Of a DNA stretch of 64,000 nt, positions 15,942 to 32,936 are shown one piece after another. Under the pieces are notes generated by a model. It did not search any database. It had not been told where the DNA came from and was given only the letters and a program-made list of their open reading frames with translations. The DNA lies in the NCBI GenBank assembly GCA_045128515.1, contig JBGVRO010000052.1:8493-72492 (forward strand). Direction: 5' to 3'. Made by a program: the position numbers and the translations under genes. Every line of letters begins with the position of its first letter. Within the stretch, counting starts at the first letter, position 1. The stretch comes from Eubacteriales bacterium. GTDB lineage: Bacteria > Bacillota > Clostridia > Oscillospirales > CAG-272.

Positions 15942-15993
15942 AATGGAAACCTCCTAAATCATTTGTGAAACTGTATACATTAGCTTTTCTAAA

Positions 15994-16032: not shown

Positions 16033-16040
16033 TAAATATA

Positions 16041-16310
16041 TTATCTAAGAAAAAGGTACATCAACAATGCAGCGACCGAGAAAGCACCAACGCATATGAG
16101 CAATATGAGACCGTAAACTGAAAATGCTGCTCTCATCATAGCCAAACGTTCTCTTGCCGTAGCAGATATGCGGTTCTTTCTCTTCTTGTCATATTCCTCC
16201 TGCTCCTCGGGGGTTCTACCCTCGAGGGCAGCCATAGAATATATCGTATCGCCCTTGTCCTCAAGATAAACAATTTTAACTTTCTTCTTTTTCTGCATCT
16301 TATTACTCAT
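16041..16310 (-). CDS. Small (89 aa) K/E-rich protein with one C-terminal TM helix, coupled to the Opp ATPase gene
   Basis: The ORF overlaps the upstream ATPase stop by 8 nt (ATGAGTAA). Charged N-terminal half and C-terminal helix VYGLILLICVGAFSVAALLMYLF. No clear SD, so the coding status is uncertain. Confidence 0.4.
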   Translation of the reverse strand: MSNKMQKKKKVKIVYLEDKGDTIYSMAALEGRTPEEQEEYDKKRKNRISATARERLAMMRAAFSVYGLILLICVGAFSVAALLMYLFLR

Positions 16311-17361
16311 TTTCAGTATAAAGATGGCAGTTTACGAAGTGTCCGTTTCCGATATCCGTCATAACAGGTGCAACCTCACGGCACTTATCGGTGCAATGCT
16401 TGCATCTGGTGTGGAACTTACAGCCCTTAGGAGGATTTGCGGGGCTGGGAAGCTCTCCCTCGAGAGCTACGGGATCGGACTTTGCGTGGGGGTTAGCCAC
16501 GGGTACTGCCGAGAAGAGCGCCTGAGTGTAAGGATGCTTTGCATTGTTGCAAATTTCCTTTGCAGTGCCCATCTCAACGATATTGCCAAGATACATTACC
16601 GCGATATCGTCGGAAATGTATTTAACAACGGAAAGGTCGTGGGAAATGAATATGTAAGACATTCCCTCCTCGCGCTGGAGCTTCTTAAGAAGGTTAATGA
16701 TCTGCGCCTGAATAGAAACGTCAAGTGCGGATACAGGCTCGTCACAAATAACAAGCTTAGGCTTAACCGCAAGAGCTCTTGCAATACAGATTCTCTGACG
16801 CTGACCGCCCGAGAACTCGTGGGGGTATCTATCGTAGTGGTGGGGCTGAAGTCCGCATCTTGCCATTACGTTTCTTACGTAATCACTGATCTCGGAATCC
16901 GGCACAATCTTATGTACCTTTACAGCCTCGCCGATAATAGAACCAACGGTCATTCTGGGAGGAAGCGAGGAATAGGGATCCTGGAACACAAGCTGAAGCT
17001 CTGTTCTGAGATCGTAAAATTCCTTCTTGGATATCTTGGCAAGATCGTAGGTAGTCTTTTCTCCATTCTCATTAACCGAGGTATATTTTGCACTTCCCTC
17101 AGTAACGTCATAAAGGCGGAGAATGGTTCTGCCGAGAGTGGTCTTACCACATCCCGACTCACCAACGACACCAAGAGTTCTGCCTCTCTCAAGCTTAAAG
17201 GACACACCGTCAACGGCGCGAAGATAAGCAAGTGGCTTGCCAAAGAAGTTGGTTGCTACGGGGAAATACTGCTTCAAACCGTCTACCTCAAGGATATAAT
17301 CCTTTTCCTCATTCTCGTTAGGCGCGCTCTGAAGGTTATCAAGAAGCTTTTCTTCCATCAA
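16303..17361 (-). CDS. Oligopeptide/dipeptide ABC transporter ATP-binding protein (OppF/DppF-type)
   Basis: Walker [10 protein letters not shown], signature [15 protein letters not shown], Walker [13 protein letters not shown], and the C-terminal oligopeptide-transporter extension [12 protein letters not shown]…CKFHTRC. Confidence 0.9.
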
Positions 17362-18542
17362 TTATCTCCCCCCTTCTCCTCACACAAGTGACAGAATACA
17401 CTGTGAGTAGGTGATATCTTAATTTCTCTCGGGTAACTCTTGCCCTCACACTCAGCACATCTCATGTCGCATCTGCCCTTAAACAGACACTCATCGGGAA
17501 TGTTGATGGGATTGGGAACGTTACCGGGAATACTGTATAACTCCTCTGCCGCATCAGAAGCAAGCGAAGGCTTAGCCTTCTGAATACCTCTGGTGTAAGG
17601 ATGCATAGGATTATCGAATATTTCATATACGGTTCCCTTCTCTACTATCTTACCCGCATACATAACTACAACGTAGTCAGCCATCTCGGCAACAACACCG
17701 AGGTCGTGGGTAATAAGCATAATAGAAGCACCGCACTCAGCCTGAACCTTTTTAAGAAGCTTAAGGATCTGGCTCTGGATAGTAACGTCGAGAGCCGTGG
17801 TAGGCTCGTCGGCAATAATAAGCTTGGGATTACCCGTAAGAGCGATAGCGATCATTACTCTCTGTCTCATACCGCCGGAAAGCTGGTGAGGATAGTAATC
17901 TACCATCGTCTCGGGCATGGGAATACCTACCATAGAAAGCATCTCGATAGCCTTTGCTCTCGCCTCTTCCTTCGTTGCCTCGGGATTGTTGAGATAGAAG
18001 ACCTCCTCGATCTGATATCCTACGGTAAATACGGGGTTAAGCGAGGTCATAGGCTCCTGGAATATCATAGAGATATCCTTACCTCTGATTCGGCACATAT
18101 CAAGAGTAGGCATCTTTGTGATGTCGTAACACAGATCACGTCCCTCATCGTCCTGACCGAGCTCGATGGAATTGAACTTGATCTTTCCTCCGACAACCTG
18201 TCCCTGGGGAGCCTGAACAAGCTGCATAATGGAAAGGCTTGTTACACTCTTACCGCAGCCCGACTCACCAACAAGACCCACAATAGAGTCCTTGGGAACC
18301 TCGAAGGAAATATTATTTACCGAGCGGACAACACCGTTGTCTGTGTAGAAGAATGTTTCAAGATTCTCTACCTCAAGCACGTTATCGTTAGAGCTCATAA
18401 CGGTTGTGAACTGCTCGGGGGTGCGCTTCTCGCGCTTGATCTTCTCAAGACGCTTCATCTCGCGAAGATTGCTCTTTATGATCTCACGGCTCTCCTTGAG
18501 GCTGAGAAGATTAGGATTCTTATTTTTCTTACTCATTTTCAT
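17358..18542 (-). CDS. Oligopeptide/dipeptide ABC transporter ATP-binding protein (OppD/DppD-type) with a K/E-rich N-terminal extension
   Basis: Walker A GESGCGKSV, signature LSGGMRQRVMIAIAL, Walker B LIIADEPTTALD, HPYTRGI, and a C-terminal Cys cluster. The first 45 aa or so (MKMSKKNKNPNLLSLKESREIIKSNLREMKRLEKIKREKR) are extra relative to typical OppD. Confidence 0.9.
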   Translation of the reverse strand: MKMSKKNKNPNLLSLKESREIIKSNLREMKRLEKIKREKRTPEQFTTVMSSNDNVLEVENLETFFYTDNGVVRSVNNISFEVPKDSIVGLVGESGCGKSVTSLSIMQLVQAPQGQVVGGKIKFNSIELGQDDEGRDLCYDITKMPTLDMCRIRGKDISMIFQEPMTSLNPVFTVGYQIEEVFYLNNPEATKEEARAKAIEMLSMVGIPMPETMVDYYPHQLSGGMRQRVMIAIALTGNPKLIIADEPTTALDVTIQSQILKLLKKVQAECGASIMLITHDLGVVAEMADYVVVMYAGKIVEKGTVYEIFDNPMHPYTRGIQKAKPSLASDAAEELYSIPGNVPNPINIPDECLFKGRCDMRCAECEGKSYPREIKISPTHSVFCHLCEEKGGDN

Positions 18543-19621
18543 TACCTCTTGGACTTGGGGTCCATTGCATCACGCAGACCGTCGCCTACGAAGTTGAAGG
18601 CAAGAACTGCTATTACGATAAGGATACCTGCGGGGATCCAAAGATTGGGATAATACTGCATGGTAACAGGGTCGGTAGAGGACGAGATCATTGTACCCCA
18701 AGCAGCATACGGAAGCGGAATACCGAGACCGAGATAGCTAAGAGTAGATTCGTACAGGATAATACCGCCGAGACCAAGTGTCATCGAAACGATAAGCTGG
18801 GGCATAATGTTAGGTACAAGGTGCTTGAAGATTCTTCTCCATGTGGGGATACCCATAACCTCACAGGCTACGATGTATTCCTGCTCACGAAGGTAAAGTA
18901 TCTGACCTCTTACCATACGGGCTGTACCACTCCAACCGAATACCATCATTATAAGCATCAGGTAGTAGATTCTCATAGAACTTTCAATATCCCATGAGTC
19001 GATAACCACGGATGCAATAAGAAGGATAGGAAGTGTGGGGATACAGTTAAGAATATCAACCAATCTCATTATAAGCTGGTCTACCTTGCCACCGAAGTAG
19101 CCTGAAATACCACCCATAATGACACCGATGATAGTTTCAAGGATAACGACTACGAAACCGAGTGTAAGAGAAATTCTTCCACCGTACATAAGACGGATAA
19201 ATACGTCCATTCCCTTCTCGTCTGTACCGAGAAGGTGATCAAAGGAAAGAGGAGCGTAGGAGTTGATACCAACGGTTTCCTCAACGTACTGAATAACCGA
19301 ATATTCATTTCCCTCAGCATCAGTAGTCTTGATATTTAGCTCTTTTATAGCTCTTTTAACCGTGGGAGTATGGTCGGTCTCAGTTTCAGCCCACTGATAG
19401 CCGAGCATATGCATCACGGGAGGTCCGATAAAGGCGAAGGCGAAGAGTGCAACAAGCATTATTACGCCGACAAGAGAGAGTCTGGAACGGAAAAATCTGC
19501 GCATTACGACTCTCGCAGGCGATAGCTCCTTGTAATGGATCTCCTCCTCCACAAGCTCTTCGTTATTGACCTCAAGCTCTGTGTTATTATTTATTTCCAT
19601 TGTTTTCTCCATATTGCTCAT
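18542..19621 (-). CDS. ABC transporter permease (OppC/DppC-type)
   Basis: 359 aa. HLLGTDEKGMDVFIRLMYGGRISL (OppC N-terminal signature region), multiple TM helices, and the typical ending FNFVGDGLRDAMDPKSK. 1-nt overlaps with both neighbours. Confidence 0.88.
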   Translation of the reverse strand: MSNMEKTMEINNNTELEVNNEELVEEEIHYKELSPARVVMRRFFRSRLSLVGVIMLVALFAFAFIGPPVMHMLGYQWAETETDHTPTVKRAIKELNIKTTDAEGNEYSVIQYVEETVGINSYAPLSFDHLLGTDEKGMDVFIRLMYGGRISLTLGFVVVILETIIGVIMGGISGYFGGKVDQLIMRLVDILNCIPTLPILLIASVVIDSWDIESSMRIYYLMLIMMVFGWSGTARMVRGQILYLREQEYIVACEVMGIPTWRRIFKHLVPNIMPQLIVSMTLGLGGIILYESTLSYLGLGIPLPYAAWGTMISSSTDPVTMQYYPNLWIPAGILIVIAVLAFNFVGDGLRDAMDPKSKR

Positions 19622-20943
19622 TACTTTGAAAGCTTAACTCTCGGGTCAACTACTGCGTACATAAGGTCGGACAGTAATGTACCGATAACCGTAAGCACGG
19701 CAAGGAACATATTGTATCCCATGATAAAGGGAACGTCACCCTGCTGAAGCGCCTTGTAAGCAAGACGTCCAATACCATCGATAGCGAATACCTCCTCGGT
19801 AATCATCGCACCGCCGAACAGCGAGGGGAGAATACCTGCAAGAAGGGTCATAAGAGGGATCATTGTATTACGGAACGCGTGTACGTAGATAACCTTCTTT
19901 TCAGAAAGGCCCTTGGAACGCGCGGTACGAATGTAGTCGGAGTTAAGAACCTCGAGCATATTTGTTCTCGTATATCTCATAAGTCCACCGATGGACAAAA
20001 CTACAAGAACCAGCATAGGCAGAACGAGGTGGTGGAGCATATCCAATACATATGCAATACCCTCACTGGAGCCGCCTGCGCTTACAAGACCGGAGGTCGG
20101 GAACCAACCAAGCCAGCTTGAGAACACCTTAATAAGAAGTGCCGCAAAGAAGAAGGAGGGCAACGAAATGCCTATCATAGTGATAACGGTTACCGAGTAA
20201 TCGACAACCGAATACTGACGGGTCGCGCTGACTATACCGAGAGGAATAGCTATTGCAAACTGGAATACGAGTGCTACGAGGGATATCAGGAAGGATATCC
20301 ACATATGCTCGGCAATAACCTGGTTAACGGGGAGCTGATAAAGGAAGGACTCACCGAAGTCACCCTTAAGCATATTGCCAAGCCAAGAGAAGTATCCGCC
20401 AAGCAGCGCTACGAATTTGTTCCAAACGGTGGCTACTTTATAATTTACAGTATACTCGTAGGACGAGCCGGTAGTAGTACGGACACTAATTTTACCTTCC
20501 TCCACAAAATACGCACCCGAGGCGATTCGGGTCTGGGTGTCGCCCGAAAGATCAAACAACGCCCAGCTCAAATCATCCTTTAATTCGAGTTTAAGTTTTT
20601 CGTCAGAGGAGTAATAGTTGCCTATATAGAATTTTGCGTAGGTGGATTTGCCATCCAAAACGTCATTATATGCTCTCTGCTTCACGTCTCTGCGAAGAAC
20701 CTCGCCGTCGTGCTCGCCGCCGTTAATAGTTACGTCGAGATAGGCATCAGGCATATAAAGACCGTAATTTTTCTTGAATTCATCAATCTTTTCAGTAGTT
20801 ATAGTTCCCTGCTGGATCTGTGCCGAGAATTTGCTTTCGAGATAATCGGTCGGCATAAGTCTTACAAGGAAATAAATTATAAGAGAAACTCCGAAAAGAA
20901 CGATTATAGAAAGACCGAGTCTTTTCAGTATATATTTCAACAT
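19621..20943 (-). CDS. ABC transporter permease (OppB/DppB-type) with an extracytoplasmic loop insertion of about 105 aa
   Basis: 440 aa. MLKYILKRLGLSIIVLFGVSLIIYFL start, GDFGESF motif, and the typical ending DLMYAVVDPRVKL. Extra segment DAYLDVTINGGEHDG…YEYTVNYKVAT lies between the LYMP and WNKFVALLGGYFSWLG blocks. Confidence 0.88.
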   Translation of the reverse strand: MLKYILKRLGLSIIVLFGVSLIIYFLVRLMPTDYLESKFSAQIQQGTITTEKIDEFKKNYGLYMPDAYLDVTINGGEHDGEVLRRDVKQRAYNDVLDGKSTYAKFYIGNYYSSDEKLKLELKDDLSWALFDLSGDTQTRIASGAYFVEEGKISVRTTTGSSYEYTVNYKVATVWNKFVALLGGYFSWLGNMLKGDFGESFLYQLPVNQVIAEHMWISFLISLVALVFQFAIAIPLGIVSATRQYSVVDYSVTVITMIGISLPSFFFAALLIKVFSSWLGWFPTSGLVSAGGSSEGIAYVLDMLHHLVLPMLVLVVLSIGGLMRYTRTNMLEVLNSDYIRTARSKGLSEKKVIYVHAFRNTMIPLMTLLAGILPSLFGGAMITEEVFAIDGIGRLAYKALQQGDVPFIMGYNMFLAVLTVIGTLLSDLMYAVVDPRVKLSK

Positions 20944-20972
20944 TTTAACTTTCCTCTTCCACTAATTAATGA

Positions 20973-23576
20973 TTACTTAGTCTCATTAAGTCCAACTTCC
21001 CAGATACGAGCCATAGGTCCGTTGTAAGGAGTAAGCTCGGAGGGAGGAGTAAGAGTGGATACGTCGATAATGTTGGTGTTATATGCGAAGAGGTCACTAC
21101 GCTGATATGTAGGAAGCTCAACTGCAAGCTCCATTACAAGATCAAGAGCGTCTGCATACAGCTCAGCTCTGCGGTCCTCATCAAGAGTCTCTCTCGCCTG
21201 ATCGATGATAGCGGAAAGCTGCTTAACGAGAGAAAGCTCGGTGCTGAACTTATTTGCATTAGAGGGAGAAAGGATCGCATCGTAGCCCCAGTTAGCTGTA
21301 GAGCCTGCAGTAGAATCCATGTGGTATACCTGATACATATCAGGGTCTACACCTGCGCCCCAAGCAGCTGCCCAAACGGTAAGGTCGCCGCTGTTAAGCT
21401 TCTTCAGTGCGTTGATGTCAGGATCTACATCGATGTCGAAGCCGATCTTGTTAAGGATCTCTGCCGCCTTCTTCAGTGCAGCGTATGCAGGGTGGTCGGT
21501 GGTATCACCTGCAATGGTGAAGGTGTACTTAAGAGTCTGACCGTTCTTTTCGTAAACGCCGTCAGCGTTAAGAATGTAGCCTGCTTCCTCAACAAGCTTC
21601 TTACTTGTCTCACCGGTTTCATCATACGCATAGTACTGACCAAGCTCATCAACTCCATCGGGATATGCCCAAGAAGCCTTGGTCATAGGACGGGTAATAG
21701 GCTTGGAATAACCGAAGTAGTAATCTACCGCATAGTCGGTGTTGATAGCGTGCATGATCGCACGTCTTACGTTAATATCAGGAATAAACTCAGCATTGAT
21801 ACCGATATAACCGTAACCGTTGGTCATAATATCTGTACTTGCAAATCCGTCCTCAGACTTTGCAGCGATAGAGTCAATGTTCTCCTGCTTACAAGCGGGC
21901 TCAACGAAATGAACCTCACCGGAGTAGAGGGACTCGAGCATAAGGTTAGTAGAAACTACCTTGTAGTTAATGTACTTGATCTTTACGTCGAACATAAAGT
22001 TCTCGTTACGTTCAAAATAAACGAGGTTAACGTCCCAGAAGGTACCTGCGGTAACCTTGGAGCCGTCACCGGTACGGGTAGTTGCCTTGTAAGGACCTGC
22101 GCCTACGGGAACACCGATCTTATCGGGATTCTTGATTACAGCATCCTGGAATTCAATGCTACCGAACTCAAGACCGAAGTGAGACTCATAGTCGAAGAGA
22201 GCAATCTGCTCTGCGTTGGAGTAATAGTACATAGGAGCAACGGTAAATGCGAAGTTCCAGATAGCCTTGGGGTCAACCTTATCAATAGTGATCTGGAGAA
22301 CCTCGTTACCGGAAACAACTGCGCCGTTAGCATCGAGAGTAGGAACACCGTACTCAACACCGTTTACTGTAACGGACTCGCTACGGTTAGCATACTTAAT
22401 ACCGGAGATGTTCTTGATTCTGTCTTCCTCATCAATGCTCTCGAAGTAAGCCTGCTTCTCAAGAGATGCGAAGTAATCAAGAAGCTTCTGAGCGGTAGCC
22501 CAACCAACAACGACGTCGATCATTTTGTTGGGAACGTAGCTGGTGAAGATAGCGTTGATAGCCTCATCCTCAGACCAGTTCTTGGACTTATCGCCAAGGG
22601 AGTAATCAAACACCTTGTTATCCTTGTCCCAGGTAATGAAGCCCTCGTTGTAAAGGAAAGCTTCGGTATCGGTGGTAAGGGTTACCTTATTGCCGTTCTT
22701 ATCAGTAAAGGAAATGTCCTGAGCGGTACCCTTGGAATAGGTGTAGTCACTCTTAAGCTCCTCGCGGAAATACTTAACAGCAAGATTGTAGTCATCAACT
22801 ACAGTGCCGTAAGCCTCTGCACCGTCATAACCGCTGTCCTTAAGCTGATTCATAACCTCGGTAAGCTCGAAGATCATTCCATCCTCGGTAAGGCTGGTAC
22901 CCTCGTTGTCGTCATATACGATCTCAAGGCACTCTACAAGGCGGAGAACTCTGTCGGATGCGAGAGCGGTAAACTGTGCATTAAAGCCTTCCTGTACGTT
23001 CTCGTTACGGCTCTGTGTGCGGTACTCCTCAAGACCCTGGATCTCGGTGGAGTAAATGGTAGAGCTACCGTAGTAAGCAGGATCGAGATAAACGTAAAGG
23101 TTGAAGAGAACGTCCTTCATAGTAAGAGCCGAGCCGTCGGAGAACTTAAGATCGTTCTTAAGAACGAAGTAGTAGGTAGTCTCCTTGGGAGTTCCGTCCT
23201 CATTGTTGGTGGTAACTGCCTGGTAGTCAAGAACTACGCAAGCCTCATCCTTACCGTATGCTACCTTACCGTCCTTATCGGAGGAAAGCATACCGATCTG
23301 AGTCATACCTACAACCGATCCGTCAGATGCGGATGAGGAGTAGAAGGGGTTGAATACGCCGTCAAGCTCTGCGGTGGAAAGTACAAGTCGTGTGGTCTCA
23401 TTATCAATAACTACTCCACCGCCATTGTTGTTACCGCCACCCACCAATACAGCGATGAGCGTAGCTACTGCGCCAAAGAAAAGTACAACCGCAAGAATGA
23501 TAGCAACAAGCTTCTTGGGAGACTCTTTGGCAAAAGCAACGATTTTGTTTTTGAGTTCAATAAAGAAATTCTTCAT
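20973..23576 (-). CDS. Large (867 aa) family-5 (OppA-like) ABC substrate-binding protein, N-terminal TM-anchored
   Basis: N-terminal anchor LVAIILAVVLFFGAVATLIAVLV with no lipobox Cys. Family-5 features include VLSTAELDGVFNPFY, LKFSDGSALTMKDVLFN and GVPVGAGPYK. It is about 300 aa longer than my memory of typical OppA. Confidence 0.85.
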   Translation of the reverse strand: MKNFFIELKNKIVAFAKESPKKLVAIILAVVLFFGAVATLIAVLVGGGNNNGGGVVIDNETTRLVLSTAELDGVFNPFYSSSASDGSVVGMTQIGMLSSDKDGKVAYGKDEACVVLDYQAVTTNNEDGTPKETTYYFVLKNDLKFSDGSALTMKDVLFNLYVYLDPAYYGSSTIYSTEIQGLEEYRTQSRNENVQEGFNAQFTALASDRVLRLVECLEIVYDDNEGTSLTEDGMIFELTEVMNQLKDSGYDGAEAYGTVVDDYNLAVKYFREELKSDYTYSKGTAQDISFTDKNGNKVTLTTDTEAFLYNEGFITWDKDNKVFDYSLGDKSKNWSEDEAINAIFTSYVPNKMIDVVVGWATAQKLLDYFASLEKQAYFESIDEEDRIKNISGIKYANRSESVTVNGVEYGVPTLDANGAVVSGNEVLQITIDKVDPKAIWNFAFTVAPMYYYSNAEQIALFDYESHFGLEFGSIEFQDAVIKNPDKIGVPVGAGPYKATTRTGDGSKVTAGTFWDVNLVYFERNENFMFDVKIKYINYKVVSTNLMLESLYSGEVHFVEPACKQENIDSIAAKSEDGFASTDIMTNGYGYIGINAEFIPDINVRRAIMHAINTDYAVDYYFGYSKPITRPMTKASWAYPDGVDELGQYYAYDETGETSKKLVEEAGYILNADGVYEKNGQTLKYTFTIAGDTTDHPAYAALKKAAEILNKIGFDIDVDPDINALKKLNSGDLTVWAAAWGAGVDPDMYQVYHMDSTAGSTANWGYDAILSPSNANKFSTELSLVKQLSAIIDQARETLDEDRRAELYADALDLVMELAVELPTYQRSDLFAYNTNIIDVSTLTPPSELTPYNGPMARIWEVGLNETK

Positions 23577-23608
23577 TTTCTGTTTTTGCCTCTCTATTTA
23601 TTTTATTA

Positions 23609-24715
23609 TTAATTAACATATATAGGAACGTTGATGCTGCTTTCGTTTACAGTAACTACTGTGTTGTCGGCAGTTGTTTCATAGTACATTTGAACCTCGG
23701 TTGCAAGAAGCTGGTTAGTAATGAGAGTACCCTCAATGCTAACTCCCGATACGGTAACGTTGCCCATCTTAACGGCAAGCGCAGCAACCTTCATTTTATT
23801 AACGCTGTCTGCAACGCCGGTAACGTCGTAGGTAACACCGCTAAAGGAAATGTCTCTGATTATAGTACCGTCTCCAAGGCTGTTGAAGATGGCGCAGGAT
23901 ACGATTGCAGTACCCTTCTTTTTAACTGTGAAATTGGAAATGGAGAAGCCGTTGCCATTGATCTCACCGCTGTAATCACCGAGTGAAAGAGTTTCGCCCG
24001 CGCAATCAATGTCTGCGGTAAGATGAACGTTCTCGCCTGCCGAGATAGCATTCTTCAGCTTGGAGAGAGTATCAACGAAGGTCCATTTGCCCTTCATATA
24101 ATCAACGTAAACGGGTACGTTAAGATCTGTGTCATTGCCGGGATGAGTATAAGCTGTATCCCATGCGATTTTACATTCAGGATCGGAATAGTAACCAAGA
24201 GCTGTGTAGCCGTTTCTATTCTTGGCAAAATTACGCCAGTCCTCAAACTTGTCACCGGAATTAACGTCATACTTACCGAGAGAAATCTGCTGTCCGTTTT
24301 CATCTATATAACAAACGGTATATGTAAGCTGAATCGCCTTTTTCCAGCCGGCGTAAAGTGTAAGCTGCTCCTGATCAATTACCTTATCAAAATCCCACTT
24401 GCTTGAGGGGCTGCAGCTCTCGTCGGTATACCAGCCAGTGAATACGTAGCCGTTACGGAAAAGCTTGTAGCCGTTAAGCTCACAGATGTCAAGCACGTAA
24501 GTGCCGGGGTAGTAAGCAAAATTGATCTTTGTGCTTACGCTTGATGTAGGAGTCTCGAGTGTGCCGCCCTGAAGCTCAAAGGTGGCAATATAGCGTCCCT
24601 CAAGACTTTGCTCTTCCCTGCCGCAGCCTGACAGTGTTACTGCCAGGACTGCGATAAGGAGAACAGATAATATTAAACAGATTCTTCTTCTGTTACTTCT
24701 GTTTCTTCTTTGCAT
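23609..24715 (-). CDS. Lipoprotein with two Listeria-Bacteroides (Flg_new) repeats and a beta-helix/GLUG-like C-terminal half
   Basis: Signal peptide plus lipobox LAVTLSGC. Repeats GYVFTGWYTDESCSPSSKWDF and GYTALGYYSDPECKIAWD. C-terminal part GEINGNGFSISNFTVKK…IIRDISFSGV. GAAGGGA SD about 10 nt upstream. Its start lies 43 nt inside the 3' end of the protease gene. Confidence 0.7.
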   Translation of the reverse strand: MQRRNRSNRRRICLILSVLLIAVLAVTLSGCGREEQSLEGRYIATFELQGGTLETPTSSVSTKINFAYYPGTYVLDICELNGYKLFRNGYVFTGWYTDESCSPSSKWDFDKVIDQEQLTLYAGWKKAIQLTYTVCYIDENGQQISLGKYDVNSGDKFEDWRNFAKNRNGYTALGYYSDPECKIAWDTAYTHPGNDTDLNVPVYVDYMKGKWTFVDTLSKLKNAISAGENVHLTADIDCAGETLSLGDYSGEINGNGFSISNFTVKKKGTAIVSCAIFNSLGDGTIIRDISFSGVTYDVTGVADSVNKMKVAALAVKMGNVTVSGVSIEGTLITNQLLATEVQMYYETTADNTVVTVNESSINVPIYVN

Positions 24716-27700
24716 ACTGAAGTTCCCTTCTTCTTAATAAGTATTACGGCAACCGTAGCACCGCCACCAAGAACAAGCACAGAACCTACAACGATAAGAA
24801 CGATCACCCATGTCTTAAGACCTTCCTTAGGCTGTTCGTTGTTATTATCGTTTTCACCGGGATTCTCAGGTGCTTCTTCCTCTGTACCAACATTATCCTT
24901 GTAGGAAAGGCTGAAGTCAACAACCTTGCCGTAGATAGCATTAAGCTCTGCTATCTTCTGATCAAGAACGGCTGCATTGGTGATAAGTGCCTTGTCGGAT
25001 GCGGAAAGTGCGTCGTAAGCCTTCTTTGCTTCCTTAACGTTATTGAAGCAATATTCAAGCTTATCCATATCGTAGAGATGAGCAATCTTGTCGGTTACAT
25101 AATCTACGTTGTACGCAGAGCGTGCGGTCTCGAAGGTTGCAAAGTATGCATCGTCTACAAACTCAACCTCCTCGGGATGAGCCATAAGAGCGTTGTATGC
25201 TGTAATTGCAGCATAAACAAGCGTCTTATCAAATCTGTCGATCTCCGCAGGAAGCTTGTCAACGGCATCCATAAATTCAACTGCGAACTTGCCTGCAGTG
25301 ATTCCGGAGTTTTCTTCAGAGGTTGTAAAGTAAGCATTGTAAATGAGAGTATCGTAGCCAGAGCAGTTTTCGGGAAGAACTGCTACAAGACCGTCGGTGG
25401 TCTTGCTACCGATAATACCCTTGAATGTGTTGTAGTAAAGGGGTGCAGAAACTATGCCGTTTGCTACGAAGTAATAATCATACTTGTAAAGAAGATCAAA
25501 GTCACTGTAATCTGCCATATTGTCGTAATTGATCTCAATTCCCTCACCTGTCATAGTGCCCTCAAGCACGGGTGCATAGTAGGATCTGAATACAACGGTA
25601 TTAAGCTTTTCACAGCCGTCAAACGCATAGTTACCTATGTATTTAAGAGTGGAAGGAAGAGTAACCTTTTCAAGGAACTTGTTACCGAGAGCTGCGCCGA
25701 ACTCAACTCTTACCGTTCCCTCAAGAACGGAGTACTCGGCATCTTCCTTAGCCATGGGATAAGTTGTAAGAACGTAACCGAATTTGCCCTTGGTGTAAAG
25801 TGCGCCGCCGTCGATAATAACGTTATCAAGCTCTGCGGTATAAACCTTTTCACCGTCGATTACGGTGTAGAAGCCCTTGAAGGACTCGCTGGACTCAAAG
25901 ATGTTAAGTCCGGCATCTCTGAGTGCGTTACCGATCTCAAACTCGGTAATTGCGGTGTAAGCAAACGCACCGTATCCAACGCTTTCAAGCACGGGAGCGT
26001 ATACAGACTCAAGCTTAAGACAGCCTGCGAACGCCTGATCGCCAACAGACTTGAGGTTGGGAGCGTTAACGGTAACGATGTAATTCTTGCCATCCTCTTC
26101 GATGAATGCGTAGCCGTCAATGTGCTCTGCCTTCTCAAGGTTAAGATCGGCAGGAAGATTTACGCCGTAGAATGCGCCCTCGCCGATAGTTACGAGATTG
26201 GAAAGATCGATCTCGGTAAGAGATGTACATCCGTAGAATGCATAGTCACCAACCTCCTCAAGAGTATCGGTAAGAGTTACCGACTTAAGAGCCTGACACA
26301 ATGCAAGTGCACCGTAGCCAAGGTTGGTAACCTTAGAAAGGTCGATGGACTCAAGGTAAATCATACCGTAGAATGCGCCCTCGCCTACGTATTCAAGAGA
26401 AGGAAGATTTACCGATTTTATATCGTTTGCTTTAACCGCCTCCTCGATGAGAGGACAGAATGCGCTGTTGCCTATGATCTTAAGGCTGGCCGCATCAAGT
26501 ACTGCAAGTGCATAACAATCGCTGAATGCGCTCTCCTCGATCTCGGTGATCTTAGGAGCAACGATCTCGGTAAGGGATGTACAACCGTAGAATGCGTACA
26601 TAGGAATAGTTCCGGTAAGATCCATGAAATCAAAGGATGTAAGTGATGTACATGTGTAGAATGCCCCCTCAGCAAGAGTTGCATCACCCGCAAGGCTTAC
26701 AGTCTTGACACTGGATTCTGCGAACGCATATTCACCGATCGATACGTTTTCTCCGAGAACAACGCTCGAAAGAGTGATACAATGGTAGAATGCGCCAATA
26801 CCGATCTCTGTTGCACCGGAAAGATCTACGTTCTTAAGTGCAGAATCGTAGAATGCATAGTGACCTACAGAGGTAACACCGGAAAGATCGATATTTCTGA
26901 GGTTTCCGGTACCGTAGAATGCGAAGTCAGCGATAACGATCTCGCCATCGGGAAGCTCTACGGTATTAAGCTTGGTACAATCGGCAAATGCATTTTCACC
27001 GATATATTTGAGAGCAGAACCGTCCTCAAAGATTACGGTAGCAAGCTTGGGAAGAGATGAGAATGCTCCGCTGCCAATCTCCTTAACACCCGCGATAACG
27101 GTATAGGTGTTAGAAGAAGCCGCAGCAGGAAGAACGAATACGATGGTATCCTTTTCCTTGTTGTAAACAGTTCCGTTTTCCTTTATATATATATTGGAAG
27201 AATTTACGTCAATGTCAAAGGTCTTGACGTCGCGGAAGAGTGCTACGCCGAGATATGTAAGCTCGGTGTCAGCAGAAAGCTTAAGAGTAGCAAGTCCGGA
27301 GCTTGCAAATGCATCGTCACGGATCTTGATTGCGCCATCGGGAAGCTGAAGCGATGTAAGCTTCTTACAGCCCTTGAATGCGCCTGCGCCGATCTCCTCG
27401 AGAGAAGACTTTATATCAACCGATTCAAGCACCTTACAACCTTCAAATGTGGAAATACCGAGGTAGGTAAGGTCATTTACGATCACAAGGCTCTTAAGAG
27501 CTTCACAGCCCTTGAACGCCTCGTCAGCGATGCTGTCACCGTATACGGTTACAGAGGTAAGCGCAGTGTTTTCAAACATCTTCTCGCCTACTCTTGTGCT
27601 CTCGCCAAGGTCAACAGACTCAAGCTTGGAGCAACCGGAGAATGCGCCGATGCCTATTCTTACAAGCTTTGTAAGAGGAAGACTGTAGAATCTGGTATTC

Positions 27701-30700
27701 TTAAATGCGTAGTTACCTACAGAATAAAGCTCAGCGGTCTTTGCGCCACCGATATCCTCACAGGAAAGGCTCTTACAGTCAGAGAACGCATAATCTGCAA
27801 CGACCTTTACGTTATCAAAGTTAACGTTCTTAAGAAGTACGGAATCTGCAAATGCATACTCTCCTATAGTCTTACATGTAGTAGGAAGCGTAACGTCTGT
27901 AAGCTTAGTACAGTTGAAGAAAGCATACTTGTTGATAGCCTCAACACCCTCGGGAATAACTACGGATGTTACGGTGTTGTTACCGATAGCAGATTTTTTC
28001 TCATCTATATCGTAATAACCGTTTTCGTCCTTCTCTACCTCCTTCTCGTTATCGAGATCGTAGTGAGAGAATGCAAAGTCACCGATGTACATAATACCCT
28101 CGTCATCAGGGATCACAACGTGACCGCCCTTACCCTTGTACGCAACGAGAGTTCTGTTCTCAATGATAAACTCGCTCTTTACGTTAACAGAAAGACGCGC
28201 TGCAAGGAGAGAGGTCTTACCGTCAATGGTGATCTTAAGAGTAATTCTTGCACTACCCTCGGACTCTGCGGTTACTACACCGTTTTCATCAACGGTAGCA
28301 ACCTTCGGGTTACTGGAGGTCCAGGAGAGTGTGTATCTGTCCTCGGAAATATTCCAAGGCTTGATCTGAGGATTAAGCTTTATCTGCTCCGAAGGATAGC
28401 AGGAAATGCTGTAATTGCCATCGAAGTAGTTAATAGAACCGGTAGAACCAATCTCGGAATAATCGATATCACTGTTAAATGCAAACAGTGTTTCGTACGA
28501 AAGGAAATCAAGGTCCTCAATAGATACGTTCTGTCCGGATTCGGGATTATCTGTGATTACCTGGTCGGTAACCTTAATGACAATTTGCTTGTACTGTGGA
28601 ACGTTGAGATAGCTGTCGTTGACGTTAGTCTTTTTCACCCAGCTATCACTGGTAACGCTTATCGTTGCACTACCCTCTTTAAGTGCCTCGATCTTACCCT
28701 GATGAATAGCTACAACAGACTCATCGGAGGAGATCCACTTAAGTGTGTTGAGGTAATCGGGAGATACAGCGTCGGTGGTGTCCTTGTATACAAAGAATGA
28801 TGTAAGATCGAAGGTCTCGTTGATGTCAAGCTCGATCTCATTCTCCATAAACTCAATATCACCGTCGGTGTTATCGAAGGGAATGTAGCAGATAGAAGCG
28901 TTCATCGCATAGTCGTCGATGTAGAGGGTCAAACCGCTGGACATCTTCGTAGTTGAGATAATATCGAGATAATCGGTGATCTCGAAGCTGACGAGAGTGC
29001 TCTCGCCACGATTTTCCTGATAGATAGGAATAGGATTCTCCGAAATGGAGGAGTATGTAAGAACCTCTTCCTGCTTGGTTTCATCGAAGGTATCATAAAC
29101 TCCGATAGGACGAACGGACATTGCGTAATGGTTATCGTAAACGGTAAGGTCTACGTAATATCTGTTCTTGTCAAGCGCCTTATCGTACTCGGTCCTGTAC
29201 TTATAATCAACAATGGTAGGAGCCTCGTAGTCGATATAGAAGGAGAAGGTGTATGTATCGGAAATATTATCTCCACCGTCCCAGTCAAGCTTTGCGCTCA
29301 TGGTAACCTCAAACTTGGTGTTATTGTTACCGATAACCTCACCTGTTTCATAATTTACGGTAGGAAGGTTAATGCTGCAAGCATAGGGGTAAGGCGAGCC
29401 GTTGAAATGCGCCTTATAGCAGTTATACTGAACATCCTCCCAGACAACATCACCTGTGGATGTGTCAACGATCTGAATGCTCATCTCCTTCGCTCCACGG
29501 AGAAGACCTGCGAACACACCGTAAATACCACTGATAGTGTCAGCATAATAGGATATAGCAGCTCTTTCCTGGGTTGCAGGAATAGCGGTATAACCGGGAG
29601 CCATGTTATATACATAGCTGCCGAGAGGAAGAACATAGTCGTAGTAGTAGCTGCCGAGAGGAGTGGTTGCATAGTAGTCAGCCTTGATCTTCTCGTCATC
29701 GTCAATAGCGTCGTTGTGAGCCTCGGTCTCAACCTCGTAATAATCAAGGTCGAAGAGGGGAGCCTCTGCCCAATCTCCGTAGAACGCAAGGAATGGAGCG
29801 TTAAGATCAATTCCCTTCTCCTCGGTGCTGTCGAAGGTAATATAACCCTCAACGTACATACCGTTTACGAAGGTAGAGTTAAGATAGCTCTTATCCTCGG
29901 CAGAGAGTGTGATGGTGACAGTAACCTTTGCGGTAGCACCTGCAGCAACAGTAACGATACCGTTTTCAAGAGTGCCGCCCTCAACAGAGTACTCGGAGGT
30001 GTTGGAAAGAATGTAAGCCATTTCTGCTACGTATTCGGGATCGGATACCGATACGCTCTCGGTCATAGTAATGTTGCCGAGCTTGTAGGAAAGAGCTCTG
30101 TCTGAAATATTATTGAGGTTAACGGTCATTTTATAGACACCCGAACGAGTGGGGTCGTCTTTAAGCTCAAGCTTAGTCTTATTAATGCCGTCAACAGAGA
30201 GATATGCGGGGGTTGTAGTGGACTTTGCAATATCTGCAATACCTGCGCCCTGCTTTCTGGGAGAATAGGGATTACCCTTTTTGTCAAGAGCGATAGTCGC
30301 GGTGGACATTGTGAGCTGGTTAACCAGATCTCTTACCTCAACAACCGAAAGCTCGGGGAAGGTTTCCTTAACGTACTGGCGGATAAGAACGGTAATACCG
30401 CACATATTGGGAGCCGCCATACTTGTACCACTAAGCTTATCGTATTCACCGCCTACAACGGCTGAAAGGATGTTACCGCCGTGAGCCGTGATCTCGGGCT
30501 TAAGAGAAAGGTCGGGATTAGGTCCCCAGGATGAGAAGTCGGACATAAAGGGACCTGCTACGTTTTTAAGGTCAAATTCAAGAGTGCCGGACTCCAGCGC
30601 TGCAAGAAGGTCACCCTCATCCTTACCAATGAATACGGCAGGAATCTTAGCATCGTTACCGATGGTCATTGTAAGATCACCGAAAACGTTGTTATAAACG

Positions 30701-32316
30701 ATAACAGCAATAGCGCCTGCCTCGGCAGCGTACTGCACCTTTTCTTCGAAGGTAATATCACCTCTCTTAACGAGAGCGATCTTGCCGTTAACGTCGATGC
30801 CGGCATAGTTTATCTTCATACCTACACCGGGTACGGTAACGTAATCGAACACCACGCTCTCGCCCTCCTTGATGCCAAGCATCTGGAAGAAGTCGTACTC
30901 CTTTGCAGAGGTGTCAACCGAGGGGGTGAAGAAGATGGGGTTAGAGCCGTTAGCAAACATGTAGTTGTCCTTGTTACCATTAATGGAGGCAACGGACATA
31001 GCTGCATCGTATGTAGAAGGCGAACCGACAGTCGCAGAGTCGGGATTCTCGGTCTTATTGGTATTACCGTTTTCCGAGCCGAAGCCGCTACCGTAATCGT
31101 TAGAAGCTGCAACGACAAGAGAAATGCCTGCCTCCTCTATTCTGTTGTATACGTCATTCTTGTACTCTTTGTCAGGTGCGCTCTCGTATGTGAATCCACA
31201 GGAAGCACCAAGGCTCATGTTGATCGCGTCAACACCGAGAATAATGGAGTCCTCAAGAGCTGCAATGATATCACCCTCTTCAGCGCCGGAATCATAGTCA
31301 CTGAATACCTTCATGATAGCAAGCTGTGCGTCGATAGCAACACCGGTAATTTCTGTATCCTTACCTGCAATAATGCCGGCAACGTGAGTACCGTGGCTAT
31401 TCTCGAAAGGCATAATGTCAGGATCCTTGTCGGCATAGTCGTAACCGAATGCGATCTTGTCACCGGTGATATGGCCGTAATATACCTCACGGCTTGTAAG
31501 ACCTCCGTTGAGGCTATAAGCCTGAGTGCCGGGAAGAAGCTCCTCAATCATCTCACGGTTGTAATGAGGATCAGCGATCTGATAGCTCTTGAAGGCACTG
31601 TGAGAGTAATCGCAACCAGTGTCAAGAATAGCAACAACGGTGTCCTTACCGGTATAGCTTACGCTCTGGCTGTTGAAAATACCGGTATGGTAAACGTCAA
31701 CAGGGTTATTTACCGCATCAGCAGGAAGGTAAGAGTTAGAGATCATTACTCTCTCAACTCCCTCTACGGAAGTGATCGCATCGATCATATCGTAGGTTGT
31801 CTTTACAAAAGCACCGTCGGCAATATGAACGTAGCTGTATCTGACGTCGTTTACAAGGCCCTCAGCAACAAGACGGTCAAGAACGGTATTCTGTCTTGCG
31901 ACAAGCTCGTTCTTATAGTCGTTTGCGATCTTAGTATCCTTGAATTCCTCGTAGGTCATAACACCTGCATAACCGGATCTCGAATATGCATCAACAAGCG
32001 AGTCGTCGGAGAATGTAATGATAAGTCCTACACTACCCTTAAGCTGGTAGTCGCTTACCTTCTTGACCAATTCCTTATTAAGAGTTTTGATCAAATTCTT
32101 TTTGAGCTGCGCTGTGATCTCATCCGCATCAAGCTTTACGATGCCGGAAGGAGATACGGAGTTAGCTCCGTCGCCGCTCTGAGAAATCTGATTGGCAATA
32201 GCGCCGATGCTGATTGCAAGCACCTGCGTAATCAACACAAGTGCAAGAATAAACACAACGCATCTTGGCATAGTGCCTCTCAATTTCTTTCTGTTTTGTT
32301 TGGGTTCTTTGCGCAT
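24673..32316 (-). CDS. Giant cell-envelope S8 subtilisin-like serine protease (I9-like propeptide, PA-domain insert, Fn3-like, 2x Big_2, about 850 aa BspA-type LRR, C-terminal TM anchor)
   Basis: The ORF track starts at 32415. I prefer the ATG at 32316 (AGAGGAA SD 7 nt upstream; MRKEPKQNRKKLRGTMPRCVVFILALVLITQVLA signal/anchor), because the predicted promoter -10 at 32429..32434 puts the TSS near 32422. Catalytic motifs (track numbering): VAILDTGCDYSH (D265), HGTHVAGIIAG (H341), LSGTSMAAPNMCG (S665). PA insert NGKIALVKRGDITFEEKVQYAAEAGAIAVIVYNN. Big_2-like LKWISSDESVVAIHQGKIEALKEGSATISV and LSWTSSNPKVATVDENGVVTAESEGSARITL. TM WVIVLIVVGSVLVLGGGATVAVILI (24733..24810) followed by an acidic tail. 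Confidence 0.9.
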   Translation of the reverse strand: MRKEPKQNRKKLRGTMPRCVVFILALVLITQVLAISIGAIANQISQSGDGANSVSPSGIVKLDADEITAQLKKNLIKTLNKELVKKVSDYQLKGSVGLIITFSDDSLVDAYSRSGYAGVMTYEEFKDTKIANDYKNELVARQNTVLDRLVAEGLVNDVRYSYVHIADGAFVKTTYDMIDAITSVEGVERVMISNSYLPADAVNNPVDVYHTGIFNSQSVSYTGKDTVVAILDTGCDYSHSAFKSYQIADPHYNREMIEELLPGTQAYSLNGGLTSREVYYGHITGDKIAFGYDYADKDPDIMPFENSHGTHVAGIIAGKDTEITGVAIDAQLAIMKVFSDYDSGAEEGDIIAALEDSIILGVDAINMSLGASCGFTYESAPDKEYKNDVYNRIEEAGISLVVAASNDYGSGFGSENGNTNKTENPDSATVGSPSTYDAAMSVASINGNKDNYMFANGSNPIFFTPSVDTSAKEYDFFQMLGIKEGESVVFDYVTVPGVGMKINYAGIDVNGKIALVKRGDITFEEKVQYAAEAGAIAVIVYNNVFGDLTMTIGNDAKIPAVFIGKDEGDLLAALESGTLEFDLKNVAGPFMSDFSSWGPNPDLSLKPEITAHGGNILSAVVGGEYDKLSGTSMAAPNMCGITVLIRQYVKETFPELSVVEVRDLVNQLTMSTATIALDKKGNPYSPRKQGAGIADIAKSTTTPAYLSVDGINKTKLELKDDPTRSGVYKMTVNLNNISDRALSYKLGNITMTESVSVSDPEYVAEMAYILSNTSEYSVEGGTLENGIVTVAAGATAKVTVTITLSAEDKSYLNSTFVNGMYVEGYITFDSTEEKGIDLNAPFLAFYGDWAEAPLFDLDYYEVETEAHNDAIDDDEKIKADYYATTPLGSYYYDYVLPLGSYVYNMAPGYTAIPATQERAAISYYADTISGIYGVFAGLLRGAKEMSIQIVDTSTGDVVWEDVQYNCYKAHFNGSPYPYACSINLPTVNYETGEVIGNNNTKFEVTMSAKLDWDGGDNISDTYTFSFYIDYEAPTIVDYKYRTEYDKALDKNRYYVDLTVYDNHYAMSVRPIGVYDTFDETKQEEVLTYSSISENPIPIYQENRGESTLVSFEITDYLDIISTTKMSSGLTLYIDDYAMNASICYIPFDNTDGDIEFMENEIELDINETFDLTSFFVYKDTTDAVSPDYLNTLKWISSDESVVAIHQGKIEALKEGSATISVTSDSWVKKTNVNDSYLNVPQYKQIVIKVTDQVITDNPESGQNVSIEDLDFLSYETLFAFNSDIDYSEIGSTGSINYFDGNYSISCYPSEQIKLNPQIKPWNISEDRYTLSWTSSNPKVATVDENGVVTAESEGSARITLKITIDGKTSLLAARLSVNVKSEFIIENRTLVAYKGKGGHVVIPDDEGIMYIGDFAFSHYDLDNEKEVEKDENGYYDIDEKKSAIGNNTVTSVVIPEGVEAINKYAFFNCTKLTDVTLPTTCKTIGEYAFADSVLLKNVNFDNVKVVADYAFSDCKSLSCEDIGGAKTAELYSVGNYAFKNTRFYSLPLTKLVRIGIGAFSGCSKLESVDLGESTRVGEKMFENTALTSVTVYGDSIADEAFKGCEALKSLVIVNDLTYLGISTFEGCKVLESVDIKSSLEEIGAGAFKGCKKLTSLQLPDGAIKIRDDAFASSGLATLKLSADTELTYLGVALFRDVKTFDIDVNSSNIYIKENGTVYNKEKDTIVFVLPAAASSNTYTVIAGVKEIGSGAFSSLPKLATVIFEDGSALKYIGENAFADCTKLNTVELPDGEIVIADFAFYGTGNLRNIDLSGVTSVGHYAFYDSALKNVDLSGATEIGIGAFYHCITLSSVVLGENVSIGEYAFAESSVKTVSLAGDATLAEGAFYTCTSLTSFDFMDLTGTIPMYAFYGCTSLTEIVAPKITEIEESAFSDCYALAVLDAASLKIIGNSAFCPLIEEAVKANDIKSVNLPSLEYVGEGAFYGMIYLESIDLSKVTNLGYGALALCQALKSVTLTDTLEEVGDYAFYGCTSLTEIDLSNLVTIGEGAFYGVNLPADLNLEKAEHIDGYAFIEEDGKNYIVTVNAPNLKSVGDQAFAGCLKLESVYAPVLESVGYGAFAYTAITEFEIGNALRDAGLNIFESSESFKGFYTVIDGEKVYTAELDNVIIDGGALYTKGKFGYVLTTYPMAKEDAEYSVLEGTVRVEFGAALGNKFLEKVTLPSTLKYIGNYAFDGCEKLNTVVFRSYYAPVLEGTMTGEGIEINYDNMADYSDFDLLYKYDYYFVANGIVSAPLYYNTFKGIIGSKTTDGLVAVLPENCSGYDTLIYNAYFTTSEENSGITAGKFAVEFMDAVDKLPAEIDRFDKTLVYAAITAYNALMAHPEEVEFVDDAYFATFETARSAYNVDYVTDKIAHLYDMDKLEYCFNNVKEAKKAYDALSASDKALITNAAVLDQKIAELNAIYGKVVDFSLSYKDNVGTEEEAPENPGENDNNNEQPKEGLKTWVIVLIVVGSVLVLGGGATVAVILIKKKGTSVCKEETEVTEEESV
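25588..28158 (-). repeat. Protein-level BspA-type (LRR_5) repeat array inside the protease gene
   Basis: Repeating units such as VTLPxTxKxIGEYAFxxCxxLxxV, from about aa 1420 to 2276 (track numbering). Same repeat family as in the 2864-aa protein. Confidence 0.7.
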
Positions 32317-32428
32317 TTGAATTTCCTCTATTTCTTTTTTTATTAAACAAAGTTGATGGCGACAAAATCTGTGAGACGGATTTTGCGCTTTCCTAAGCTG
32401 TAACAGTAAAGCCAATTTTACTTATTAT

Positions 32429-32457
32429 ATTATATCACATGCGCGAAAAAAAAGCAA
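32429..32457 (-). promoter_or_regulatory. Putative sigma-A promoter of the protease/Opp operon (TTGCTT-17 nt-TATAAT, TGn-extended -10)
   Basis: Minus strand reads TTGCTT (32457..32452), a 17-nt spacer ending TGA, then TATAAT (32434..32429). Leaves a 5' UTR of about 105 nt before the ATG at 32316. Confidence 0.5.
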
Positions 32458-32920: not shown

Positions 32921-32936
32921 TTCTACATTATTATTA

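Follow-up and report, generated by a model that had tools for sequence, protein, structure and literature searches.

A conserved gene cassette joining an LRR-bearing subtilase to an Opp-type importer, a candidate protein-foraging system of gut bacteria

Main finding and proposed mechanism

A run of eight genes at 16041..32316, all on the minus strand, was analyzed in a 64,000-nucleotide (nt) stretch of contig JBGVRO010000052.1 from a Eubacteriales bacterium (assembly GCA_045128515.1; hereafter the window, in whose numbering coordinates are given unless they follow the name of another locus). These genes encode a very large subtilase carrying leucine-rich repeats (LRR), a lipoprotein, an Opp-type importer of five subunits and a small membrane protein. 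We consider it probable, although far from certain, that they constitute a dedicated and co-expressed protein-foraging cassette, in which the division of labor known from cell-envelope proteinases (CEPs) and Opp importers is wired into one operon. The genes are joined by tight junctions, the catalytic triad of the protease is intact, the domain content and importer architecture are complete, and the linkage recurs across many species and lineages.

According to the mechanism that we propose, the subtilase would be exported and stay fastened to the outside of the membrane through a C-terminal transmembrane (TM) helix, from where its CEP-type module, an S8 domain with a PA insert followed by an fn3_5 domain, would cut extracellular proteins. 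The BspA-type LRR region would most likely bind or position substrates or particles, and its part in substrate capture is conjecture. Released peptides would then be caught by a membrane-tethered, unusually long substrate-binding protein (SBP) and pumped into the cell by the OppBCDF-type importer, while the lipoprotein, composed of Flg_new and beta-helix-like domains, and a tail-anchored protein of 89 amino acids (aa) could serve as accessory subunits on the transporter side.

Organization of the locus and expression signals

The original prediction described eight co-oriented open reading frames (ORFs) packed behind a single promoter, and both the ORF coordinates and all seven successive junctions (-43, +32, +29, -1, -1, -4, and -8 nt) were reproduced exactly. 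Since the junctions overlap or are very short (-43 to +32 nt), there is no space for terminators between the cassette genes, and the eight genes are probably co-transcribed as one unit. A hairpin at 24767..24746 was considered as an internal terminator and rejected, as it lies inside the TM-coding segment of gene 1 and has a poor T tract. Upstream, the unit is bounded by a terminator-like hairpin consisting of a perfect 12-bp inverted repeat with A/T runs on both sides (32893..32922), which closes a YhhN-family gene (32937..33626); an AT-rich spacer of 620 nt separates that gene from gene 1.

The likeliest start of gene 1 is the ATG at 32316, which is preceded by AGAGGA 7 nt upstream, and a leader of approximately 105 nt connects it to a candidate sigma-70-type promoter read in the sequence (TTGCTT-17-TATAAT, 32429..32457, minus strand). 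The hexamers and the spacing predicted for this promoter are indeed present, and we could add an extended -10 element (TGaTATAAT), but the site scored under the threshold of a consensus scan because its -35 hexamer matches at only three of six positions. In the same region the number of promoter-like sites was not above chance (31 vs. 29.0 +/- 5.3 expected from shuffled sequence), and the count of terminator-like sites equaled the shuffled expectation. Orthologous loci each possess a strong promoter-like site at a comparable position 5' of the protease ATG, for example TTGACA-17-TATACT in locus L007 and TTGACT-17-TATAAT in L004 and L010; the sequence 5' of the protease gene is unalignable between orthologs, and only the presence of such a site is common to them. 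The leader has an ordinary fold (z = -0.34), and an Rfam scan of the whole window returned one tRNA only, with neither a riboswitch nor a T-box in the leader. Within the AT-rich spacer, a perfect 10-nt palindrome (ATGCATAATT-N7-AATTATGCAT, 32763..32789), located about 310 nt upstream of the candidate promoter, may be an operator.

The cassette genes and the giant LRR gene downstream of them (7347..32316) exceed most other genes of the window in codon bias, a possible sign of high expression. In the large genes, 72-77% of the Leu codons are CTT, compared to 33-58% in most other window genes, and TTA, CTA, and TCA together occur 0-5 times per 1000 codons in the cassette and the giant LRR gene compared to 17-48 times elsewhere in the window; the 2547 codons of the protease gene include no TTA, no CTA and eight TCA. 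Long plus-strand ORFs run antisense to these genes (21321..23336, 12996..15782, 16324..17391, 17601..18653, and 25078..26646), all of them codon-aligned with the sense gene, and antisense ORFs of up to 2669 codons span the whole protease gene in relatives (L008 1010..8920 and L009 811..8820, both minus strand). We rejected these as genes and regard them as shadow ORFs, because TTA, CTA, and TCA codons are nearly absent from the sense genes.

A CEP-type protease with an LRR region and a membrane anchor

Gene 1 (24673..32316) encodes a CEP/C5a-peptidase-type subtilase of 2547 aa. The Peptidase_S8 match in Pfam (E 1.3e-44) covers residues 223-692 (30241..31650), and the D/H/S triad previously proposed was confirmed as D232, H308, and S632, which, like the oxyanion residue N406, fall within catalytic motifs in the alignment with C5a peptidase. 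Over residues 219-883 the protein aligns to C5a peptidase (PDB 7edd, 1xf1) with E ~4e-66 and to SpyCEP/CEP structures with E ~1e-60. A PA domain occupies residues 504-571 (30604..30807) between H308 and S632, as had been expected, and an fn3_5 domain (residues 728-842; 29791..30135) opens an Ig-like middle region (28147..30135) containing two Big_2 or HL_N-beta-like stretches, in agreement with the two Big_2 domains claimed earlier. Proteolysis of extracellular proteins by the gene 1 product is predicted from sequence similarity.

The middle region is followed by a BspA-type LRR region (25597..28146), for which Pfam reports eight LRR_5 stretches (E 2e-128, 422 bits vs. a cut-off of 27.7) with motifs from approximately residue 1408 to 2243; its extent is therefore about 835 aa, close to the 850 aa first suggested. 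In the remainder (24757..25596), a stalk-like region and a low-complexity, acidic linker lead to the TM anchor, which is a single hydrophobic helix at approximately residues 2498-2516 (24757..24831), as originally predicted, with a short charged tail behind it. A search for an LPXTG-like motif in the gene 1 protein found none. In NCBIfam, the protease comes closest to NF040553, the model of the streptococcal surface peptidases SGO_0316/0317, with 255 bits where the cut-off is 1400; its LRR part has a match to the model of the adhesin HupY/LrrG.

At the N-terminus, a hydrophobic signal or TM segment (residues 14-42) precedes a conserved pro-like module delimited by alignment (both within 31657..32277), which comprises residues 43-220, about 180 aa, and has the motif VDVYxTGIFNS at its C-terminal end. 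The suggestion that this is an I9-like propeptide did not hold, as Pfam gave no Inhibitor_I9 match within residues 41-220 even at E <= 10, and a profile of the module searched against the PDB retrieved the cucumisin propeptide alone, with a non-significant E of 0.43. In locus L026, the slot after OppF (L026 17096..21562) is filled by a 1488-aa Flg_new protein without an S8 domain, which retains only the N-terminal pro-like module of the protease (~220 aa, 23% identity, E 8e-14, VDVYETGIFNS). Because the module is kept there without the S8 domain, this suggests that it has a role of its own, for example in docking or export.

Conservation of the cassette across genomes

An SBP-alignment scan of one genome per GTDB species revealed relatives in at least 588 genomes, and linkage was counted in the best 80 of these at least 588 loci (SBP identity 42-76%) using tblastn with all window proteins. 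The block lipoprotein-SBP-OppB-OppC-OppD-OppF was contiguous and co-oriented wherever the contig covered it. In 63 of the 80 loci, the protease, with catalytic core, middle region and LRR, directly adjoined this cassette in the same orientation. The gene order on which the original prediction had been staked is hence kept beyond this genome. Among the 17 loci without a protease, 14 end at a contig edge, and three (L011, L026, and L086) have full flanks of 10 kb.

The 63 linked loci show two arrangements. In 17 of them the protease opens the cassette, as it does in the window; the other 46 end with the protease, whose gene starts about 10-20 nt after the small ORF, and locus L090 is a complete example of this second order. 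In a neighbor-joining tree of the SBPs the protease-first loci are basal, while the protease-last loci make up a large derived clade in which a protease-first subclade is nested, indicating that the order has changed at least twice and that the linkage was kept. Starting from the protease side, we moreover found the same eight-gene order in two Oscillospiraceae loci with a protease about 40% identical to that of the window; their SBP shares 40% identity with that of the window along the entire protein, insertion included, their gene 2 product has the beta-helix-like domain as well, and their small protein is built in the same way. A 1294-aa protease paralog lacking the LRR region is not adjacent to opp genes.

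Carriers are labeled as Clostridia, Eubacteriales, Christensenellaceae, Oscillospiraceae, Bacilli, Mollicutes, Acholeplasmatales, and Anaeroplasma, originate from human, ruminant, rabbit, and chicken guts, and have locus GC contents from 30% to 55%; every recovered locus derives from a metagenome assembly or an isolate-free bin. In the same genomes, identity to the window proteins was highest for OppC, OppD, and OppF (80-90%), lower for the SBP (~74%) and the S8 core (~67%), and lowest (45-50%) for the lipoprotein and for the LRR region and C-terminal stalk of the protease, the LRR region thus diverging faster than the catalytic core. This gradient is consistent with a conserved engine whose exposed outer layer is free to adapt. 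Database entries for the cassette proteins carry generic names only, and the LRR proteases are named "leucine-rich repeat protein" or "S8 family serine peptidase" at NCBI.

Lipoprotein and small tail-anchored protein

The 368-aa product of gene 2 (23609..24715) is a lipoprotein (lipobox LSGC). Its reading frame opens with an ATG (24715) 43 nt within gene 1, in accordance with the claim that it starts inside the protease tail. Its description as a Flg_new/beta-helix protein was likewise supported, the first part by Pfam and the second by an AlphaFold2 model (pLDDT 90.5), in which two InlB-B-repeat-like (beta-grasp) domains are followed by a beta-rich, beta-helix-like C-terminal domain. A fold search gave domain-level matches only, to the InlB B-repeat and YwfG and, weakly, to the beta-helices of pectate lyase and IgA1 protease. 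We rejected gene 2 as an enzyme or peptidyl-prolyl isomerase (PPIase), as no such match was obtained in the PDB fold search and Flg_new is its sole Pfam and NCBIfam domain. Gene 2 adjoins the SBP gene in both gene arrangements. Because it stays with the SBP when the protease moves, and also lacks a PPIase domain, the lipoprotein is more likely a partner of the transporter than a PrtM-like maturase of the protease.

Gene 8 (16041..16310) encodes the 89-aa tail-anchored protein, which has a Lys-rich N-terminus, a C-terminal TM helix and the motif Y-x-(E/D)-D-x-G-x-T-I. The protein is conserved in each of the three lineages that its alignment covers. It matched no known family in Pfam or NCBIfam. 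Its product is presumably a membrane accessory of the importer.

The importer and its cargo

A complete importer consisting of a family-5 SBP, two permeases and two ATPases had been claimed, and all five proteins carry the expected Pfam domains. Gene 3 (20973..23576) encodes the SBP (SBP_bac_5, 867 aa), gene 4 (19621..20943) an OppB-type permease of 440 aa (BPD_transp_1), gene 5 (18542..19621) an OppC-type permease (OppC_N and BPD_transp_1), and genes 6 (17358..18542) and 7 (16303..17361) the OppD- and OppF-type ATPases (each ABC_tran and oligo_HPY). The SBP and OppB exceed their typical lengths of ~500-600 and ~300-340 aa, the SBP by about 300 aa. It contains a mostly helical insertion of about 200 aa without a Pfam match (22377..23036), and OppB has an insertion of about 120 aa after its first TM helix, which is absent from some lineages, where OppB has 331-334 aa. 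The permeases and ATPases obtained their top NCBIfam scores against Opp/Dpp-type models, the permeases below cut-off (Opp4B 268/450, Opp4C 305/350 bits). In the OppD and OppF C-termini (16303..18542) we noted Cys-rich oligo_HPY domains (e.g., CLFKGRCDMRCAECEG...C); motifs of this kind are Fe-S cluster ligands in some Opp ATPases.

The SBP belongs to a distinct clade of long proteins. A search of 1.84 billion representative proteins (50%-identity clusters) set this clade apart, as only 2426 reached E <= 0.001 and 332 of them E <= 1e-30; homologs of 830-930 aa are numerous, and an identical SBP is present in the metagenome-assembled genome (MAG) GCA_045129515.1. The SBP of the window and its 86%-identical relative P0020 lack a lipobox Cys and appear to be TM-anchored at the N-terminus instead, while three more distant homologs have a lipobox (LAGCG, LVACG, and FASCG). 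The homolog P0093 has an additional C-terminal TM segment.

We propose that peptides are the cargo because of the conserved partnership of the importer with a CEP-type protease and because of precedent in lactococci and staphylococci. In lactococci, the PrtP protease feeds the Opp importer, which is encoded at a separate locus. In S. aureus, the activity of the extracellular protease aureolysin feeds the Opp3 importer during growth on host protein (PMC6495380).

A number of observations weigh against a peptide importer that serves protein foraging, and most of them concern the SBP. No NCBIfam model reached its cut-off for this protein; the highest score, 101 of the required 650 bits, was that of S. 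aureus Opp4A, followed by a hypothetical-equivalog SBP model and then by the nickel-binder models NikA (54 bits) and Opp5A_nikA. Sequence matches in the PDB are weak and mixed, as a single-sequence search placed the nickel binder YpYntA on top (YntA, 2.5e-8) and a profile search an OppA (9p48, 9e-11). An AlphaFold2 model of the SBP was of moderate quality (pLDDT 76.8, lowest in the conserved cleft loops), and its Foldseek matches put EDTA/nickel, peptide, and staphylopine (CntA) binders within a narrow score range: EppA (EDTA), NikZ, and NikA had the top E-values, the best TM-score belonged to AppA of B. subtilis (0.75, target-normalized), and OppA of L. lactis, OppA of M. tuberculosis, and DppA followed within three orders of magnitude in E-value. 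Neither the NCBIfam models nor the PDB sequence and fold comparisons separated peptide binders from binders of metal chelates, and the SBP class on which the original prediction had also been staked speaks neither for nor against it. In addition, the Asp by which OppA and DppA fix the N-terminus of a peptide is presumably missing from the SBP motif W739-G-A-G-V-D-P-D, which we take to resemble the WGAPYDP motif of NikA. Other points concern the cassette as a whole. It contains no intracellular peptidase gene. Moreover, L011, L026, and L086 keep the transporter without the protease, the slot being taken by a non-catalytic Flg_new protein in L026 and also by a Flg_new protein in L086; these three loci are nested among protease carriers in the SBP tree, and they imply that the importer can exist without this protease. 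Finally, two CodY-box-like sites just upstream of the candidate promoter (32487..32501 and 32576..32590, with 3 and 2 mismatches to AATTTTCWGAAAATT) are among six matches with at most 3 mismatches in the window, a number reached in 12 of 100 shuffles and thus non-significant; two of the six fall in the upstream intergenic region, which is AT-rich. Since the match total is within chance, CodY control of the cassette is not claimed.

Alternative explanations

The best surviving alternative, to which we give a low probability, is that the importer carries a non-peptide ligand such as a metal-chelator complex (NikA/CntA/EppA-type) or another small molecule, and that the protease stays beside it because it frees this ligand from dietary or host proteins, or for some reason that has nothing to do with peptide nutrition. 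The nickel-binder models behind Opp4A, the YpYntA match and the top fold E-values of EppA, NikZ, and NikA all point in this direction, and an SBP that is 69-78% identical where the LRR region is about 50% identical fits a defined ligand. Furthermore, two of the five complete Opp-named systems of S. aureus, Opp1 and Opp2/Opp5A, import metal, and Opp4 has no demonstrated peptide role there (PMC6495380). However, these similarities are all weak and peptide binders score nearly as well, AppA having the best TM-score and an OppA being the best PDB profile match, and a non-peptide ligand does not explain why a general CEP-type protease is so strictly linked in 63 loci.

Alternatively, the cassette could be a host- or particle-interaction module, in which the protease is an adhesin combined with a specific enzyme of the virulence or colonization type and the transporter salvages or senses the products, although we find this quite unlikely. 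The closest solved relatives of the protease, C5a peptidase and SpyCEP, are specific host-factor proteases, the NCBIfam matches lead to the SGO_0316/0317 surface peptidases and, for the LRR part, to HupY/LrrG, the LRR and C-terminal regions diverge fastest, as expected of an interaction surface, and the carriers are all gut-derived MAGs. On the other hand, the fold family also includes nutritional lactocepins, no other colonization genes are consistently linked, and the importer linkage across commensals of ruminants, rabbits, birds, and humans is hard to square with one host target.

Two further explanations are very improbable in our judgment. The first is peptide signaling, in which the protease would mature an exported pro-peptide and the Opp-type system re-import the signal for RNPP-type quorum sensing; the architecture is that of an importer, and imported peptides regulate RNPP receptors in Firmicutes as summarized in PMC3601965, but neither an RNPP-type regulator nor a small pro-peptide gene occurs in the cassette or its conserved flanks, the sole small ORF encodes the tail-anchored membrane protein, and an LRR-bearing protease of 2500 aa is out of scale for pro-peptide maturation. 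The second is that there is no functional coupling and the adjacency is inherited synteny among abundant large surface-protein genes, as the cassette often lies among giant genes of this kind (the 2864-aa gene of the window, L090, L026, and L086); yet the linkage outlasts at least two changes of gene order, persists down to 40% SBP identity, across Clostridia, Bacilli/Mollicutes, and Oscillospiraceae labels and over 30-55% GC, and the neighboring large genes vary between lineages while the eight cassette genes do not, so that such conserved linkage would be very hard to explain without functional coupling.

We also considered a stronger version of the foraging cassette, in which the eight products constitute one membrane machine that channels peptides from the active site to the transporter without diffusion, and regard this as unlikely. 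Taken as a whole, such a machine would use the protease, the lipoprotein, the ~200-aa insertion of the SBP, the extended OppB loop and the 89-aa protein as docking parts, and would be the main nitrogen-acquisition route of many uncultured Christensenellales-like, Oscillospiraceae, and RF39/Acholeplasmatales-like gut bacteria, an extended proposal that we hold just as doubtful. The target of this machine may in some lineages be disulfide-rich host glycoproteins, namely where a gene for a large redoxin-domain surface protein adjoins the cassette.

Comparison with known systems

The foraging cassette resembles the system of lactic acid bacteria (LAB) in several ways. Like the LAB CEPs (PrtP/PrtS/PrtH), its protease is a surface-tethered S8 enzyme with a PA insert and Fn3-like domains; like prtP and prtM, the protease gene has a lipoprotein gene directly beside it; and as in the combination of CEP and Opp, proteins would be cut outside and oligopeptides imported, with the Opp-type importer as the presumed peptide sink. 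The cassette protease departs from the LAB CEPs in its LRR_5 region of ~835 aa and in being anchored by a TM helix, where those enzymes use LPXTG or S-layer-type anchors. The cassette lipoprotein differs from PrtM in lacking a PPIase domain and in traveling with the SBP instead of the protease, and the SBP differs from usual Opp SBPs in being ~300 aa longer and forming a separate clade. Whereas the Lactococcus prtP/prtM genes are a divergent pair under CodY control (PMC13374181) and opp is separate from them, the parts of the cassette are all found in one co-oriented unit.

Closer in sequence are the streptococcal enzymes ScpA/ScpB and SpyCEP, which share the arrangement of S8, PA, and Fn3 with the catalytic part of the cassette protease, the alignment over residues 219-883 being the one given above. 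C5a peptidase and SpyCEP-type enzymes are specific virulence factors and are encoded apart from importers. Unlike them, the cassette protease carries an extra extension of about 1,650 aa composed of Big_2, LRR_5, stalk, and TM segments, and it is distinguished from the LPXTG-anchored peptidases SGO_0316/0317 by its 255 bits against 1400 and by the lack of LPXTG. With BspA-type LRR proteins it shares the 422-bit LRR_5 match, but here the repeats are fused to an active-looking subtilase.

Polysaccharide utilization loci of Gram-positive bacteria unite in one operon the genes of a giant, multi-domain surface hydrolase that bears binding modules and of the importer for its products. The cassette is similar in encoding a surface hydrolase and a binding-protein-dependent importer together, and differs in that its substrate would be protein, its importer is PepT/Opp and not CUT1, and no internal regulator gene is present. 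Regarding S. aureus, Opp4A, Opp4B, and Opp4C are the best NCBIfam models for the cassette SBP and permeases, all below cut-off, while protease and transporter are separate entities in that organism (PMC6495380). In summary, the cassette differs from both the CEP plus Opp and the S. aureus protease plus Opp3 routes in five respects: it is one conserved operon, its protease bears LRRs, the protease has a TM anchor, the lipoprotein and the small protein are fixed members, and the SBP is long and divergent. Our full-text literature searches found no description of the cassette, which is absence of evidence only.

Implications

If the protein-foraging interpretation is true, extracellular protein would be a predicted primary nutrient of the carrier gut lineages, which hints at supplying intact proteins or long peptides for their cultivation, and the cassette would be a marker of proteolytic potential in gut metagenomes. 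It would also define a "protein utilization locus" for Gram-positive-type bacteria, analogous to the polysaccharide utilization loci. Moreover, three uncharacterized families were delimited, the long SBP clade, the Flg_new/beta-helix lipoprotein, and the tail-anchored small protein, and these are testable via their fixed partners.

Neighboring genes

A possible ninth gene (7347..15941, minus strand) lies 99 nt downstream of gene 8 and encodes a 2864-aa surface protein with Flg_new and LRR_5 domains. It has its own Shine-Dalgarno sequence, no recognizable terminator lies between gene 8 and this gene, and only behind the latter is there a GC-rich hairpin (7211..7242). Since this gene is syntenic only in the close relatives L001, L004, L007, and L008, it is possibly a lineage-specific extension of the unit; we rejected it as a core member, as other lineages have unrelated large genes at this position. 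In L090, the protease is followed by genes for proteins of 718, 880, 1265, and >2147 aa (L090 17308..27311) with junctions of -4 to +33 nt; their Pfam matches are absent or faint, and the 718-aa and 880-aa proteins are weak mutual paralogs.

Another family of surface proteins, of about 1000-1100 aa and 31-36% identical across lineages, adjoins the cassette in nine loci, downstream in L034 (17121..20450), L036, L049, L050, and L051, and upstream in L073, L085, L087 (6822..9839), and L088 (5066..8098). Most scanned members of this family contain an AhpC-TSA/Redoxin domain, and such a redoxin-domain surface protein could be a disulfide-reducing helper for proteolysis. In the window itself the redoxin-like match is short and confined to 47494..47907.

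Two other neighbors in the window are unrelated to the cassette, namely a MoxR (AAA_3) - DUF58 - BatA/VWA operon (2047..5926, minus strand) and a gene for a 948-aa SF1-type helicase (AAA_11/AAA_12) fused to a REase_MTES_1575 nuclease domain (49216..52062, plus strand). Beyond the YhhN-family gene, a 251-aa ORF (33774..34529, plus strand) matches best to the C-terminal part of the Pectinesterase profile only (positions 139-266 of 298) and may be a truncated gene or a remnant.

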